From the NCBI GenBank assembly GCA_040388535.1, contig JAZKBR010000007.1, positions 4,862 to 68,861 of the forward strand: a stretch of DNA of 64,000 bases. Direction: 5' to 3'. This document shows, one piece after another, positions 3,639-19,642 of this stretch (the stretch's first letter is position 1; the number at the start of each line of letters is the position of its first letter). Below the pieces are notes generated by a model that searched no databases, was not told where the DNA came from, and saw only the letters and a program-made list of their open reading frames with translations. Made by a program: the position numbers and the translations under genes. The DNA is from Gemmatimonadota bacterium. GTDB taxonomy: Bacteria; Gemmatimonadota; Gemmatimonadetes; Gemmatimonadales; GWC2-71-9.

Positions 3639-4123
3639 TCAGGGGGCGCCTCGCGATCCCACGTCCCGAAGCTTTCTCGCCAACCTCCCCCACGGTACTC
3701 GGTGCCGACCAGCTTGGCGCGTCCGGGGATATCGAGGTTTACCGTAACGATGGAATCCGTCACGCCAGAATAGCGCCCATCTGCGTTGAACACCTTCCAT
3801 GCGGCGATCATCAGGATCACCTGTCTTACTCTGGCAGTATCGCTTCGCGCATACACGGGTTCAGAATCACGCCGAGCGGCCAAGCGCCGGAGCGCAGCCG
3901 TAACGAATCCGCAGATCTCGGCCTCGCTCACTGGGTTTTCCGAATCCTGAAAGACCCGGATCGGGGGAAGATCCCCACGCGGGCACCCACCCAACCGCGC
4001 CAGCGAATCGGCGAGGCCGAGCATCCCGGCAACCGGAGTCTGCGGTCCCTCGACATCAGCAACCGGGCGCCCGCAGCCGAGCAGGACAAATGTCATCGCG
4101 CAGGCGAGCAGGGCACGCCTCAC
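3635..4123 (-). CDS. hypothetical lipoprotein
   Basis: 162-aa ORF with lipobox VLLGC. Has 4-nt overlaps with both neighbours. Confidence 0.65.
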   Translation of the reverse strand: MRRALLACAMTFVLLGCGRPVADVEGPQTPVAGMLGLADSLARLGGCPRGDLPPIRVFQDSENPVSEAEICGFVTAALRRLAARRDSEPVYARSDTARVRQVILMIAAWKVFNADGRYSGVTDSIVTVNLDIPGRAKLVGTEYRGGGWRESFGTWDREAPPE

Positions 4124-4500
4124 CAGAAATTCTCATCCTTCCGTGCCCTTAACGCCTTCACCTGGAACTCGGCCAGCTTCCGCACCAGCTTCTCCGGCAC
4201 CGGCTCATCATACGGCAGCTTCAGGAAGTTGTCGGTGGTCTGATACTTCTCCAGCTCCTTCGCGAACGCCTTCAGCGCCTTGGCCGATGGCGCCAGCGAG
4301 ACGTGCGCCTTGTGCGCCGAAAAGGCGAAGAGGAAGCGCGGCTCGATGAAGAAGGGGTTGCCCCATTTGATCGCCTCCTCGGCGTCGGGGGCCACACTCT
4401 TGAGGATCTTGTAGATCTGCTTCAGGTGCGGCCGCCGCACCGTCGGCGCCGCGGCGATGTATTCCGCGATGGTCTTCGCGCGCTTGGTTGCCACGACCAA
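4120..4500 (-). CDS. DUF1801 (YdhG-like) domain protein
   Basis: The 126-aa translation (TIAEYIAAAP...AIKWGNPFF...HVSLAP) resembles the YdhG/DUF1801 family. The track start is TTG at 4500. GTG at 4494 sits 8 nt after AGGAGG and is the more likely start. Confidence 0.8.
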   Translation of the reverse strand: MVVATKRAKTIAEYIAAAPTVRRPHLKQIYKILKSVAPDAEEAIKWGNPFFIEPRFLFAFSAHKAHVSLAPSAKALKAFAKELEKYQTTDNFLKLPYDEPVPEKLVRKLAEFQVKALRARKDENFW

Positions 4501-4631
4501 CCCCTCCTCAGGAAGTACACCCCGCTTGGCAGATGAGTGTAGCGCCTTTCGGGCACTGCCGCACTCGTCCCTCGAGAATTCACCCGCACCAATGAGTCGC
4601 CAGGCTCATCCTCTGGGCGAATCACCCCCTC

Positions 4632-5092
4632 CGTCACGCTGCCACCCCCGCGCGTCACGCCGCCACCCTCGTCCGTCACGCGAACCGGCTCCTTCGTTCT
4701 GAACACAGGGCGTCCGTCACGCCGACCGACCGCTTCGTCACGGTGACCACCCCGTCCGTCACGCTGACCGACCGTTCCGTCACGGCGGCCACCCCGCGCG
4801 CTAACACGACCGGGCTCTCCGTTTTACAAACCAGCCCCTCCGTCACGCCGACCGACCGCTCCGTCACGTCGACCACCCCGCGCGCTAACATGACCTGGCT
4901 CTCCGTTTTACAAACCGGCCCCTCCGTCACGCCGACCGACCGTTCCGTCACGGCGACCACCCCGCGCGCTAAGAATTCCACCCCGCGCGTCACGCCGACT
5001 ACCCTGTCCGTCACGGCGACCACCCCGCGCGCTAACATGACCGGGCCGTCCGTTTTACAAACCACTCCGTCCGTCACCCTTCCCTCTTCCCC
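4632..5092. repeat. phase-locked tandem array of 22 units of 21 bp (84-bp A1-A2-B-C super-repeat)
   Basis: CGTCACG cores occur at 4632, 4653, 4674, 4715, 4736, 4757, 4778, 4841, 4862, 4925, 4946, 4988, 5009 and 5072. CGCTAACA-type units occur at 4799, 4883, 4967 and 5030. CGTTTTACAAACC units occur at 4820, 4904 and 5051. There is one 1-nt phase slip near 4695-4715. Confidence 0.9.
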
Positions 5093-5117
5093 CTTCCCTC
5101 TTCCCGCTTCCCCCTCC

Positions 5118-5152
5118 TTGACATTCCATAAGCCCAGACTTATCTATCTCCC
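5118..5152 (+). promoter_or_regulatory. sigma70-like promoter TTGACA-17-TATCTA ending 6 nt before the ATG (leaderless arsR-like gene), with inverted repeat ATAAG-N6-CTTAT at 5128-5143
   Basis: TTGACA at 5118-5123, 17-nt spacer, TATCTA at 5141-5146, 6 nt, then ATG at 5153. No Shine-Dalgarno sequence. Confidence 0.55.
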
Positions 5153-5482
5153 ATGCGCTCCGCCCCTGCCCTCGAAGGAAAAGTCTTCCTCGCCCTCGCT
5201 GACCCCTCTCGGCGGGCGATTTTCGAATCGCTCACCCGCGGCGAGGCGGCCGTGAAGGATCTCACTGCCCGCTTCGACATCTCGCAGCCTGCGGTCTCGC
5301 AACATCTCGCCGCCCTGAAGGACGCCGGTCTGGTGCACGGTCGCCGCGAGGGCCGCAACGTCTTCTATCGCGTCGAACCGAAAGGGATGAAGCCACTCAT
5401 CGACTGGATCGCCCACTACCGCGCCTTCTGGACCGAACACGTCGACCGCCTCGAACAATTGCTGGAGACCATGGACCCATGA
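5153..5482 (+). CDS. ArsR/SmtB-family transcriptional regulator
   Basis: 109 aa with wHTH signature ALADPSRRAIFESL...ISQPAVSQHLAALKDAGLV. ATGA overlap with the next gene. Confidence 0.9.
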   Translation: MRSAPALEGKVFLALADPSRRAIFESLTRGEAAVKDLTARFDISQPAVSQHLAALKDAGLVHGRREGRNVFYRVEPKGMKPLIDWIAHYRAFWTEHVDRLEQLLETMDP

Positions 5483-5919
5483 ACTTCGCCGACACCACCG
5501 CCGCCGCGCAGACCGATGCCATCTCGTTCGAGTTCGATCTCGCACACCCGCCCGAGAAGGTCTGGCGTGCCCTGACCGACCCCGCCCTGCTCGAGCAATG
5601 GCTGCTGCCGGTGTTCGACATGCAGCTTGCACCGGGCACCGCGTTCTCGTTCAAGACGCAGCCCTATCCGGGATGGGACGGCACCGTGGCGTGCCGCATG
5701 CTGGAAGTCGATCCGCCCCGCAAGCTGAGCTACGCCTGGGTCGTCGGCGAAATGCTCGACACCGTGGTGACCTTCACGCTCACCTCCACACCGTCGGGCT
5801 CGCACCTCACCCTGGTCCAGTCCGGCTTCAAGCCCGACCAGAAGCAGAACTTCGGTGGCGCGCGCTATGGCTGGAAGATGATGGGTGGCAAACTCGTTGA
5901 CCTGCTCGGGAGGATCTGA
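5479..5919 (+). CDS. SRPBCC / AHSA1-like (activator of Hsp90 ATPase homologue) domain protein
   Basis: 146 aa; the sequence PPEKVWRALTDPALLEQWL is typical of this family. Translationally coupled to arsR. Confidence 0.8.
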   Translation: MNFADTTAAAQTDAISFEFDLAHPPEKVWRALTDPALLEQWLLPVFDMQLAPGTAFSFKTQPYPGWDGTVACRMLEVDPPRKLSYAWVVGEMLDTVVTFTLTSTPSGSHLTLVQSGFKPDQKQNFGGARYGWKMMGGKLVDLLGRI

Positions 5920-6290
5920 TGCCGAAGAGTGCAGCCACACCAGCGGACTGGCGCGTCGACGCGCTCGACCGGATGCGCGCGCTCATCGTCGAGGCCGACG
6001 CCCAGATGATCGAGGAACGGAAATGGAAGAAGGCGTCGAACAAGATGGCGGGCGTGCCGGTCTGGTCGCACGACGGCATCGTCTGCACCGGCGAGACCTA
6101 CAAGACGTACATCAAGCTGACCTTCGCGAAGGGCGCGGCACTCCCCGACCCCTCGGGGCTCTTCAACGCCTCGCTCGATGGCGGCACCCGCCGCGCCATC
6201 GACATCCACGAAGGCAACGAGGTCAACGCGCGCGCGTTCAAGGCGCTGATCAAGGCGGCGGTGGCGCTCAACCGCAAGCCCGCGAAGTAG
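5919..6290 (+). CDS. DUF1801 (YdhG-like) domain protein
   Basis: 123 aa (IEERKWKKASNKMAGVPVWSHDGIVCTGETYKTYIKLTFAKG). TGATG overlap with the upstream gene. Confidence 0.75.
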   Translation: MPKSAATPADWRVDALDRMRALIVEADAQMIEERKWKKASNKMAGVPVWSHDGIVCTGETYKTYIKLTFAKGAALPDPSGLFNASLDGGTRRAIDIHEGNEVNARAFKALIKAAVALNRKPAK

Positions 6291-6294
6291 CCCG

Positions 6295-6603
6295 CTAGAC
6301 CGGCGTGAGGTGCCGCGGCTCGATCCGCGGCGGCGCATCTCGCTCCGACGCGAGTCGCCGCTCCGCGAAGTCGACCCGATCGTCGAGTTCGGCCAGATGT
6401 GCCCGCAGCTCAGCGAGTTCATCCTGCAGCCCCGTCTCGCGGGCGATCTGTGCCTCCTCGACTAGCGCGACCAGCTCCCTCTCCCGCGCCTCGAGTCGCT
6501 GCTCGCGCGCGCCAAGGGAGAGACGCCAGGCCCGCAGTGCGGTCCCCGCGACCAGCACGAAAACCGTCACGCCCTTCAGAAATGCGATCGTCTCCGGATC
6601 CAT
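6295..6603 (-). CDS. hypothetical membrane-anchored coiled-coil protein
   Basis: 102 aa with one N-terminal TM segment followed by a Glu/Arg/Leu-rich helix. AGGAGGG lies upstream of the ATG and GC3 is high. Confidence 0.6.
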   Translation of the reverse strand: MDPETIAFLKGVTVFVLVAGTALRAWRLSLGAREQRLEARERELVALVEEAQIARETGLQDELAELRAHLAELDDRVDFAERRLASERDAPPRIEPRHLTPV

Positions 6604-6627
6604 ACTGCCCTCCTGGCTGCCTGGTCT

Positions 6628-7146
6628 CTAGCCTCTAGTCTTTCCTGCCATCTTGCTTCTTCCCCTCACCGGCCGTCTCGCCGGTTTCGTCGGGCGTACC
6701 ACCAGCTCAACCTCGCGCCCGAGGAGATGCAGGAGCGCGAGCAACTGCCCGATCGATTTGCCTGAGTGACCCGGATCCAGCAACCGATAGAGCTGACTCG
6801 CGGAGGTCCCGAGACGGCGCACGACTTCGCGCTTGGCGAGGTCGCTCTCCTCCATCGCCTTGCCAGCTTCCACCGTCAGGCGGTGCAGCAGCACCTCGTT
6901 CAAATAATCCGGGTCCTGATGGTATTCCCGAACAGCATCAAGATGGACCGTGTCTTCCGCACCGGATTCCAGCCGATAGGTGAACGCCTCCCGGCCAGCC
7001 TCGGCATCGGGGAAGGCATCAACCACCCGATCGTCGCTCGTCGGCGGAGTGGCCAGCTTGGCATAGGGATAGACGAAGGTCTCCCGCAGGGTCCGAACCT
7101 CAAATGCCTTCTTCCTGTTGTTCGCCGCTACGGCCTGGATCTTCAC
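6628..7146 (-). CDS. antitoxin-like protein with C-terminal XRE-type HTH (partner of DUF4160 protein)
   Basis: GTG at 7146 overlaps the upstream stop (GTGA). The longer 202-aa track ORF would overlap the DUF4160 gene by 94 nt. C-terminal HTH: REVVRRLGTSASQLYRLLDPGHSGKSIGQLLALLHLLG. Confidence 0.65.
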   Translation of the reverse strand: MKIQAVAANNRKKAFEVRTLRETFVYPYAKLATPPTSDDRVVDAFPDAEAGREAFTYRLESGAEDTVHLDAVREYHQDPDYLNEVLLHRLTVEAGKAMEESDLAKREVVRRLGTSASQLYRLLDPGHSGKSIGQLLALLHLLGREVELVVRPTKPARRPVRGRSKMAGKTRG

Positions 7147-7337
7147 AGCTCGCCCTCCCGCTCTAGTTCCGCAATAAGACGGAGAATCCGATCCGTGACC
7201 CGGCCCTTCATCGCCACCCGATTGTCGAGATCCCACTTCACGACAAGCGTCCCATCCCGGTATACGTGAACGTGCCGCGGCGGGTCATCGCCCTTCCACG
7301 TGACGAAGATGAAGCCGCCCCGTCGAAGCTTGCCCAT
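7143..7337 (-). CDS. DUF4160-family small protein (toxin-like component of DUF4160/DUF2442-type pairs)
   Basis: 64 aa; FIFVTWKGDDPPRHVHVYRDG matches my recollection of the DUF4160 PPHxHV signature. Confidence 0.7.
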   Translation of the reverse strand: MGKLRRGGFIFVTWKGDDPPRHVHVYRDGTLVVKWDLDNRVAMKGRVTDRILRLIAELEREGEL

Positions 7338-8397: not shown

Positions 8398-9378
8398 TCA
8401 GGGTGTGATGGGGTAGTTGCGCCACCGCATCGCCACGCGACGCGCCGGATCCAATCCCGATTCAGCCTCACGCTGCAGCACACGCCCGAGCGCTGGCGAT
8501 AGCTCCTTCGCCGTCAGCGTCTCGAAACCGATCGATGCGTAGAACGGCCCATTCCAGGGAACGTCGCGGAATGTCGTCAGCGTCACTGCGCGGCAGCCAG
8601 AGGTCGCGGCCCAGTCGCACACGGCGCGCACGAGTCGTCGCCCGATCCCGCGGCGACCGTGATCCGGGTGCACGTCAAGTTCGGCCAGATGCGCACTCCC
8701 CGCCTCAATGATCTCCACGTGCGCGAAGCCGCTCGGCACGTCGCTCCGTCGCGCGACCCAGAGATGCCCGCGCTGCTGCGCCGCGAGCAGGCTCTCCGGG
8801 GAGGTGGTCTCAGCAAGCACCGCCGCTGGTGCGTGCCCCGCAAGGAGCGCTGCGGCGGCCACTTCGATCTCTCCAAGGCGCGGGATCTCGTCGGGCCGCG
8901 CCATCCCGATCTGGTATGTCGACGCACGCACGAGATGGAGTATCGGAAAGGGCCGGCCGCCGTCGTCCGTTGCCGAGCGGCCCGCGACTTCGAAGCCCTG
9001 CTTCTGGTAGAAGCGCAACGCCGCCGGATTCTGTTCGTTGACATCGACCCGGAGCGGCGCATTCGCGAGCCCCTCGGCGATGGCCACCAACGCGGTGCCA
9101 CCGCCCCTTCCCTGATATTCGGGATCGAGAAAGAGTGCTTCGATGGCGTTGTTGGCGAAGCCGAGGAAGCCGGCTCGCTCGCTATTGTCGCCGACCAGAA
9201 CCCACCAGCCGATCGCGTTGCCGGCGAGTTCGACAGCCACGAGCGGGCGCAGTGACTCGATGTCGGCTTCGGTGAGAAAGTTGTGCGACGCGCGCGCCGA
9301 CCGCTCCCAGAGGGAGAGCAGCGCGTCGCTGTCGTCAGCAGTGGCGGGGCGGACCTGCAGCGATTGATGGTCGTTCAT
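8398..9378 (-). CDS. tandem double-GNAT acetyltransferase
   Basis: 326 aa with two acetyl-CoA binding motifs (QGRGGGTALV and HGRRGIGRRLV). Confidence 0.8.
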   Translation of the reverse strand: MNDHQSLQVRPATADDSDALLSLWERSARASHNFLTEADIESLRPLVAVELAGNAIGWWVLVGDNSERAGFLGFANNAIEALFLDPEYQGRGGGTALVAIAEGLANAPLRVDVNEQNPAALRFYQKQGFEVAGRSATDDGGRPFPILHLVRASTYQIGMARPDEIPRLGEIEVAAAALLAGHAPAAVLAETTSPESLLAAQQRGHLWVARRSDVPSGFAHVEIIEAGSAHLAELDVHPDHGRRGIGRRLVRAVCDWAATSGCRAVTLTTFRDVPWNGPFYASIGFETLTAKELSPALGRVLQREAESGLDPARRVAMRWRNYPITP

Positions 9379-19613: not shown

Positions 19614-19642
19614 TTGCCGGTTCTGATCGGTTGATCCACACT
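19614..19642 (+). promoter_or_regulatory. candidate promoter TTGCCG-17-CACACT ending 5 nt before ATG 19648
   Basis: Read directly. The -10 is weak but keeps the A at position 2 and T at position 6. No SD precedes 19648. Confidence 0.3.

Follow-up and report, generated by a model that had tools for sequence, protein, structure and literature searches.

Plasmid iterons and partition centromeres are exemplified by the 22-bp iterons of R6K and by the sopC site of F (12 × 43 bp). Arrays of this kind adjoin rep or par genes, and origins add DnaA boxes and an AT-rich unwinding region. The operators of ArsR/SmtB repressors overlap the promoter and take the form of imperfect inverted repeats, and the alpha satellite of eukaryotes consists of higher-order repeats of diverged monomers. 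The promoter tandem repeats of Mycobacterium tuberculosis have a phase-variable copy number (PMC12817950), and BrickBuilt, in Porphyromonas gingivalis, is a 23-nt minisatellite carried on a MITE, found 19 times per genome and furnished with a leader and a tail that have inverted-repeat ends (PMC4596501).

Here we describe an array of 22 head-to-tail units, kept in a 21-bp register over ~460 bp (4632-5092), that lies between two divergent operons in the window, i.e. the whole 64-kb stretch of DNA that was analysed. The M. tuberculosis promoter repeats resemble it in being head-to-tail units of tens of bp that are promoter-proximal, intergenic, non-coding and lineage-specific and that trouble short-read assembly; the array differs from them in its unusual length (22 units), in its second, 84-bp tier and in lying upstream of core promoters rather than inside them. 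BrickBuilt shares with it the spacer-free tandem repeats of ~21-23 nt and the intergenic position a few hundred nt from the flanking genes, whereas no inverted repeats were found flanking the array, which occurs once in 64 kb. Iterons and centromeres, with their many in-phase direct repeats of about two helical turns and a short conserved core in each, are similar in geometry only: the surroundings of the array contain no rep or par genes, DnaA boxes or AT-rich region. The description of ArsR/SmtB operators fits a neighbouring palindrome, ATAAG-N6-CTTAT at 5128-5143, which is conserved with its regulator; the array, unlike such operators, consists of direct repeats positioned upstream of the -35 element, and it is not conserved with ArsR. 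Alpha satellite has in common with the array two tiers, a recently amplified multi-unit block and degenerate edge copies, but the scale differs by orders of magnitude and the analogy is a formal, evolutionary one that implies no relationship.

The array is best explained as a member of the bacterial intergenic minisatellites or VNTRs, a known class, and it is probably a lineage-specific, non-coding minisatellite that has no sequence-specific function. A VNTR was among the options left by the original prediction, alongside a phased protein-binding or DNA-bending array and a heptad-repeat protein, and it is consistent with all of the evidence set out below (the anatomy of the repeat, its relatives, and the lack of coding or RNA signal).

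Anatomy of a two-tier array

Without spacers between them, three units (from 4632, 4653 and 4674) precede a degenerate 20-nt unit at 4695, after which 18 further units extend from 4715 to 5092 (Table 1). The 21-bp array with a single 1-nt slip at the degenerate unit, as originally predicted, is borne out alike by the register layout, by TRF and by autocorrelation, all of which describe the spacer-free, head-to-tail units of 10-100 bp that characterise a minisatellite. Autocorrelation reaches 0.55, 0.52, 0.52 and 0.61 at lags 21, 42, 63 and 84, with peaks at the two lags (21 and 84) that had been proposed as a check, and lies at 0.25-0.31 at the off-period lags 7, 10, 11, 14, 20 and 22. The top TRF row has a period of 84 (2.7 copies, 92% match, 4746-4972, score 391), and further rows cover the array at periods 21 and 42. 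The 21-bp monomers match at 62%, against 92% for the 84-bp blocks. Outside the array's own rows, TRF reported no repeat scoring above 65 in the 64-kb window.

The core of the unit, CGTCACG, is a 7-bp interrupted palindrome that is perfect in 13 units, the diverged left-edge units included, and the 21-bp period corresponds to two helical turns. Fourteen such sites had been claimed; 13 of them are exact, and the last, at 5072, reads CGTCACC. Seven of the 22 units (the B, C and hybrid types) have no core, and two more, at 4695 and 5072, are degenerate. The extended core CCGTCACGNNGNC occurs nine times, always within the array, where 0.6 occurrences would be expected (an enrichment of ~15-fold over shuffles, with nine or more occurrences in 0 of 100 shuffles). 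The third unit sequence of the original prediction, CGTTTTACAAACC, was found by exact match at 4820, 4904 and 5051 and only there. Perfect cores in 13 units, together with a two-turn period, are an arrangement that could fit a binding array as well.

The same prediction held that the units form an 84-bp super-repeat of about 3.5 copies. The 84-bp tier is real, and its composition proved to be different: two clean copies (from 4757 and 4841, differing at 7 of 84 positions) are followed by a third, which a hybrid B/A2 unit at 4967 shortens to 63 bp, and by a fourth, from 4988, that retains 85% identity to the reference copy. At its right edge the array runs into a 7/14-bp CTTCCCT repeat, so that the whole region seems to be slippage-prone.

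A short-read contig from the Logan assembly of SRR26324622 (SRR26324622_49389) is identical to the window through 4681 and stops there, directly after a 30-mer that is unique within the window. The left edge is thereby verified independently, and the exact copy number is that of the window's assembly alone. The left-flank genes are likewise identical in this Logan assembly and in the NCBI assembly GCA_040384165.1. Short-read contigs of two public assemblies end at the array or just before it, and none of the independent contigs searched spans it, as might be the case if the array, or its length, had arisen by mis-assembly of a shorter repeat. Such an artefact is nevertheless very unlikely, since the left-edge units (two whole and the third as far as 4681) recur base for base in the independent assembly, since the many distinguishing substitutions, the 20-nt unit and the hybrid unit are unlike assembler stutter, and since the window continues on both sides of the array into normal genes.

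Table 1. Coordinates of the array, its sub-features and the flanking elements within the window.
Feature	Position	Strand	Evidence or remark
DUF1801 gene, first of the minus-strand operon	4120..4494	-	Pfam PF08818, E 1.9e-14; independent gene call of 124 aa; operon layout in the Logan contig
Unique, non-repeat left intergenic segment, 131 nt	4501..4631	.	DUF1801 ribosome-binding site and presumed promoter; identical in the Logan contig
Last 21 nt of the unique segment	4611-4631		Similarity limited to the 3' half of a unit
Three diverged left-edge units, all starting CGTCACG	4632..4694	+	Register; units 1-2 and the first 8 nt (core) of unit 3 present in the Logan contig
Degenerate 20-nt unit, source of the 1-nt phase slip	4695..4714	+	Register
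A1-like and A2-like pair ahead of the 84-bp blocks	4715..4756	+	Register, unit list
Two full 84-bp copies (A1-A2-B-C), 7/84 differences	4757..4924	+	TRF, pairwise comparison
Truncated third copy: A1, A2 and hybrid (5' half B, 3' half A2), 63-bp step	4925..4987	+	
Fourth 84-bp copy (A1'-A2-B-C), 85% identical to the reference	4988..5071	+	Spacing, pairwise comparison
Terminal degenerate unit CGTCACC..., grading into the polypyrimidine tract	5072..5092	+	Register
Polypyrimidine tract, 7/14-bp CTTCCCT repeat	5077..5116	+	TRF
Canonical G-quadruplex motif of the polypyrimidine tract	in 5077..5116	-	Regex match GGGGGAAGCGGGAAGAGGGAAGGGGG
arsR promoter/operator	5118..5155	+	TTGACA 5118-5123; ATAAG-N6-CTTAT 5128-5143; -10 TATCTA 5141-5146; leaderless ATG 5153
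arsR-family repressor gene, first of the plus-strand operon	5153..5482	+	Pfam HTH_5, E 2.1e-14; 80 relatives at 82-93% identity

The divergent intergenic region and its relatives

The genomic context is as first described, with an operon running from DUF1801 to a kinase on the minus strand and, on the other side, an arsR promoter (leaderless, TTGACA at 5118) that the aligned relatives support. The minus-strand operon to the left encodes DUF1801, then three proteins lacking any Pfam assignment, then a 967-aa Ser/Thr kinase that carries an FGE-sulfatase domain; the plus-strand operon to the right encodes ArsR, an AHSA1/SRPBCC protein and a second DUF1801 protein. Further out lie a DUF4160/HTH pair, DoxX, acetyltransferases, DUF5990 and a GyrI-like protein. 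Genes for replication, partition, transposition or integration were not found in the flanking stretch examined, nor were tRNA genes in the 64-kb window. The best named relative of the left DUF1801 protein belongs to a Gemmatimonadota MAG, and no record matched exactly any of the right-flank proteins looked up (ArsR, AHSA1, the second DUF1801 and a 202-aa protein).

A metagenome scan yielded 80 loci that encode an ArsR 82-93% identical to that of the window. The genes upstream of ArsR vary among these loci, and the upstream sequence has no 21-bp periodicity and never more than two cores, a few of the contigs having too little upstream sequence to judge. TTGACA, ATAAG-N6-CTTAT and the leaderless ATG are kept at all loci examined. 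Across 20 aligned relatives the TTGAC, ATAAG, CTTAT and ATG columns are invariant, the -10 element overlaps the right arm of the palindrome, and there is no conservation upstream of the -35 box. The ATG lies 6-9 nt past the -10 element in these relatives, which suggests that the arsR mRNA is leaderless. Judged by this conservation, ArsR has a palindromic operator of its own that is separate from the array. The candidate assignment of the array itself as an ArsR/SmtB operator was rejected, the array being missing upstream of close ArsR genes (the 80 loci) and the conserved element being ATAAG-N6-CTTAT.

Three loci related through DUF1801 allow the intergenic region to be compared directly. A Gemmatimonadota MAG (GCA_040384205.1; DUF1801 85% identity) has the same divergent order, with DUF1801 facing arsR-AHSA1-DUF1801, and only 127 nt separate the two start codons. 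At the locus with the most similar DUF1801 (89% identity), ~115 nt lie upstream of the gene, up to a truncated arsR whose start has been joined by a deletion to the end of the AHSA1 gene. In the third (83% identity), 158 nt lie between DUF1801 and another DUF1801 gene that diverges from it, and the arsR-like genes are found at other places on the contig. Repeats are absent from all three upstream regions. With close relatives whose upstream regions are short and array-free, the 460-bp array appears to have been added in this lineage to a normally short intergenic region, and we take the comparison with the ArsR and DUF1801 loci, a contrast of presence and absence only in which the three closest relatives lack the array, as the evidence that decides its nature. 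A single-copy seed for the array was sought in the MAG and rejected: CCGTGACAGCCGACGACCGG matches A1 at 17 of 20 positions, and 7.6% of shuffles score equally.

The location of the array exactly between two divergent promoters bears on the main rival explanation, that of a contingency locus. Here the array would be a minisatellite by origin, and gain or loss of 21- or 84-bp units would alter the spacing of the divergent promoters or their coupling through supercoiling, giving heritable, reversible expression variants of the DUF1801 and arsR promoters that are open to selection. The phase-variable promoter repeats known in M. tuberculosis (PMC12817950) offer a precedent, and the Logan contig, which comes from the same population, breaks at 4681, after its window-unique 30-mer, as a branch into a length or sequence variant would. 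Ordinary repeat collapse or low coverage would explain that break equally well, however, and no length variant was seen. The array also lies upstream of the arsR -35 and not between promoter elements, and since nothing upstream of the -35 is conserved in relatives, no dependence on upstream sequence is evident. On balance we regard a contingency locus as rather unlikely.

The check for dispersed copies that the original prediction had called for came out negative within the 64-kb window, where the array is single, and in the plasmid, phage and viral collections, which gave no counterpart. A position-weight matrix of the unit found no convincing copy elsewhere in the 64-kb window, plasmids and phages searched by BLASTN with the array gave no match, and viral contigs searched with several patterns returned only unrelated repeats or one chance match to coding sequence. 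No inverted repeats bracket the array, the listed pairs being weak matches between a unit and coding sequence. A minisatellite borne on a MITE was rejected, as there is no leader or tail with terminal inverted repeats; the 64-kb window holds no dispersed copies. A wider scan of a genome collection for three CGTCACG at 21-bp spacing gave at least 120 unrelated 21-bp and 7-bp repeats, and none among the matches listed shares the rest of the unit; the pattern is too generic for the scan to be informative on relatives of the array, and it indicates that such repeats are common in bacteria. The A2 units resemble the reverse strand of the arsR codons RGEAAVKD (19 of 23), a match that we attribute to chance because about four other independent sites in the window match 23-mers of the array as well or better. 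Nothing specific was found in the literature on 21-bp bacterial repeats and on tandem repeats of Gemmatimonadota.

Coding, RNA and protein-binding signals

The stop-free ORFs noted on both strands exist as given, the plus-strand ORF entering arsR by 100 nt in a different frame. The array is stop-free in one frame per strand and both frames share a GC-rich third codon position, which gives the minus-strand ORF (4676-5077, 133 aa) a gene-like composition: its GC content by codon position is 0.68/0.51/0.83, compared with 0.70/0.45/0.78 in arsR, and a crude composition-based ORF filter flagged it. Translated, the minus-strand ORF consists of heptads such as VTERSVG, VTEGPVC, KTESQVM and LARGVVA, and a purine-rich, Shine-Dalgarno-like tract lies immediately upstream of its GTG. 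The stop-free frame, the composition and this tract would suit a young or orphan gene for a heptad-repeat protein, but the composition signal comes from only 28 independent codons and the other evidence is unfavourable. A word-indexed search of 5.8 billion proteins found no homologue of the minus-strand ORF at E <= 1e-3 or of the plus frame at E <= 1e-2. The array's own ORFs were not returned even though the window's DUF1801 protein is in the collection, which indicates that the gene caller used there skipped them, and the ORF is missing in relatives. An exhaustive HMMER search of 1.84 billion representatives gave 37 hits; the five that were read carry unrelated 7-residue repeats (EEQVDVT, DKGTVGV, TRGPVSR, TDGSVAL and TRGAVGL), and the matches are periodic low complexity of a generic 7-aa kind, not a family.

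The differences between copies of the 84-bp block also speak against a gene. Copies 1 and 2 differ at seven sites; just one of these is a shared third codon position, the changes at the others altering the amino acid, and the remaining pairs of copies have no third-position preference either. The consensus scan found neither promoter-like nor terminator-like sites inside the array, and hence no promoter-like site for the minus-strand ORF. Our conclusion is that a 21-bp period in GC-rich DNA gave rise to the ORFs as by-products. With no true homologues and no excess of third-position substitutions, the heptad-repeat protein that had been offered as an option is extremely improbable.

At the RNA level, a search of the region against Rfam found no family at E <= 1 in the array, with two weak matches outside it at 6282-6383. 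Folding energies show no gain over dinucleotide shuffles (z of +0.35 on the plus and +0.48 on the minus strand), with nearly empty centroid structures. The array thus shows no coding or structured-RNA constraint, as a minisatellite should not.

A phased binding platform comparable to an iteron array, a centromere or an operator would have a putative protein that recognises CGTCACG and forms a polymer on a single face of the helix, with a 21-bp step. The array does consist of direct repeats within the 17-22-bp range, in helical phase, that is typical of plasmid iterons; its 13 perfect cores are exactly spaced at 21 bp and enriched over shuffles to the extent given above, and they persist in left-edge units that have diverged elsewhere. 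Against this, the seven core-less units are kept by recent block duplication and two further units are degenerate, and information content shows no significant clustering of conservation in any 7-column window, the core included (permutation fraction 0.20 for all units and 0.12 with recent copies collapsed). Every relative examined lacks the array, ArsR has its own predicted operator, and there is no second copy in 64 kb. No rep, par or other partner gene was found within ~9 kb on the left side or ~8.5 kb on the right, no DnaA box lies within 14 kb (the single near-DnaA box of the 64-kb window is at 19632), and GC is 0.64-0.69 across the region, with no AT-rich stretch. The phased protein-binding option of the original prediction therefore lacks support on several counts (relatives without the array, a separate ArsR operator, no rep, par or DnaA box, and unclustered conservation of the core), and such a platform is quite improbable. 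More broadly, a regulatory or protein-binding role for the array finds no support.

Three specific systems of repeated DNA were considered and rejected. An iteron-type origin would have an adjacent rep gene, DnaA boxes and an AT-rich unwinding region, none of which is found; for a partition centromere of the parC/sopC type, no partition NTPase or adaptor family occurs among the neighbours examined; and a CRISPR array is at odds with units that are contiguous and with variable parts that recur with the 84-bp block. The alternative suggestion of a DNA-bending array gains no support either. A rough wedge model predicts for the array a helix axis that is straighter than average and straighter than in all 200 control segments, so that an intrinsically bent array is unsupported.

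Proposed history and significance of the array

The preferred reading, a minisatellite without sequence-specific function, suggests the following history. Slippage during replication, or unequal recombination, would have duplicated a segment of ~21 bp in tandem within a short divergent intergenic region, with later divergence between the copies. Four neighbouring units may later have been re-amplified as an 84-bp block, and one unequal exchange (or deletion) could have produced the hybrid unit at 4967. The B, C and hybrid units would have been retained only through this recent copying of the 84-bp block. We infer satellite-type evolution because the array combines old, diverged monomers (62%) and a newer block (92%) with degenerate edges and a hybrid unit. 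Both the origin by slippage or recombination and the neutrality of the array are deductions of this kind, drawn from the pattern of the repeats and their surroundings. Since the arsR -35 and, apparently, the DUF1801 promoter too are downstream of the array, neither core promoter would be disrupted and the expansion could have been tolerated; on this reading neither operon depends on it. Its sole likely effect would be to lengthen the distance between the back-to-back promoters by ~460 bp, a figure that perhaps varies with copy number.

Taken together, the functional phased elements that might be proposed instead, whether a platform on which CGTCACG is read every two turns or a spacer whose copy number switches the divergent operons, are unlikely. 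Were such an element real, it would be a contingency locus of a type so far undescribed for the Gemmatimonadota. If the copy number were variable and affected the flanking stress-related operons, promoter-repeat phase variation would extend from pathogens to free-living soil bacteria. As a minisatellite, the array is a clean bacterial example of a two-tier repeat, of little biological and some practical weight: it breaks short-read assemblies, in a high-GC genome it generates, on either strand, phantom ORFs that look like genes, and it could serve for strain typing in this uncultured soil lineage.

The size of the array speaks against the minisatellite reading: at 22 units and 460 bp it far exceeds any tandem repeat in the rest of the window or in 331 kb of related loci. 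In favour of that reading, short tandem arrays are common in the related DNA, where ~9 such loci were found, all of them far shorter.

The arsR promoter-operator and its surroundings

Among the soil-metagenome relatives examined (L152-L231, loci carrying a close ArsR homologue), the sequence upstream of the match holds an arsR promoter-operator that does not vary. Its elements run in the order TTGAC(A), then the palindrome ATAAG-N6-CTTAT overlapping the -10 element, then an ATG 6-9 nt past the -10. Such a layout implies that the arsR-AHSA1-DUF1801 cassette would be leaderless and autoregulated. The genomic surroundings of the cassette differ from relative to relative.

Just ahead of the arsR -35 box, on the side facing the array, lies a polypyrimidine tract built on a CTTCCCT repeat with a 7/14-bp period; its minus strand carries a canonical G-quadruplex motif, GGGGGAAGCGGGAAGAGGGAAGGGGG. 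The aligned arsR promoters of the relatives are without this tract.

Features beside the 21-bp array (positions in the window)
Feature	Position	Remark
DUF1801 gene, left of array	4120-4500	minus operon, first gene
Polypyrimidine tract	5077-5116	
arsR promoter-operator	5118-5155	
DUF1801 gene, right of array	5919-6290	arsR operon, last gene
DUF4160 and 202-aa protein genes	6628-7337	minus strand, overlapping

CGTCACG repeats in unrelated genomes

Uninterrupted runs of the CGTCACG heptamer, or of near variants, are found in many unrelated genomes among the matches listed from the genome-collection scan, including Streptomyces, Dehalococcoidia, Vulcanimicrobiota and Bacteroidota MAGs (L009, L023, L046, L064, L066, L090, L108 and others). 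Intergenic-looking 21-bp arrays that open with CGTCACG also occur among the matches listed, for example in a Gemmataceae (L044), a Planctomycetales (L050) and a Thermoanaerobaculia (L022) genome; both the runs and the arrays were chosen by the search pattern itself and share CGTCACG by selection.

Genes flanking the array

DUF1801 genes flank the array on either side, and at least two are likewise clustered in each of L236, L238 and L239, the loci with the closest relatives of the left DUF1801 gene. At L239, which holds the closest of these (89% identity), arsR breaks off after its first ~25 codons and is fused to the final ~20 codons of AHSA1 (L239:1300-1540, Logan SRR22742743), through a deletion that has taken most of both genes.

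Exact-sequence look-up found the left-flank genes, together with the genes at window positions 8398 and 35571, in public assemblies, and matched none of four genes that directly adjoin the array on its right, within 5100-7300 (arsR, AHSA1, the second DUF1801 and the 202-aa protein). Different start-codon calls, a gap in the assemblies concerned, or strain variation to the right of the array are possible reasons for their absence from these look-ups.

The 202-aa protein gives a weak match to HTH_37, and its gene overlaps that of a 64-aa DUF4160 protein, in a layout reminiscent of a toxin-antitoxin pair.
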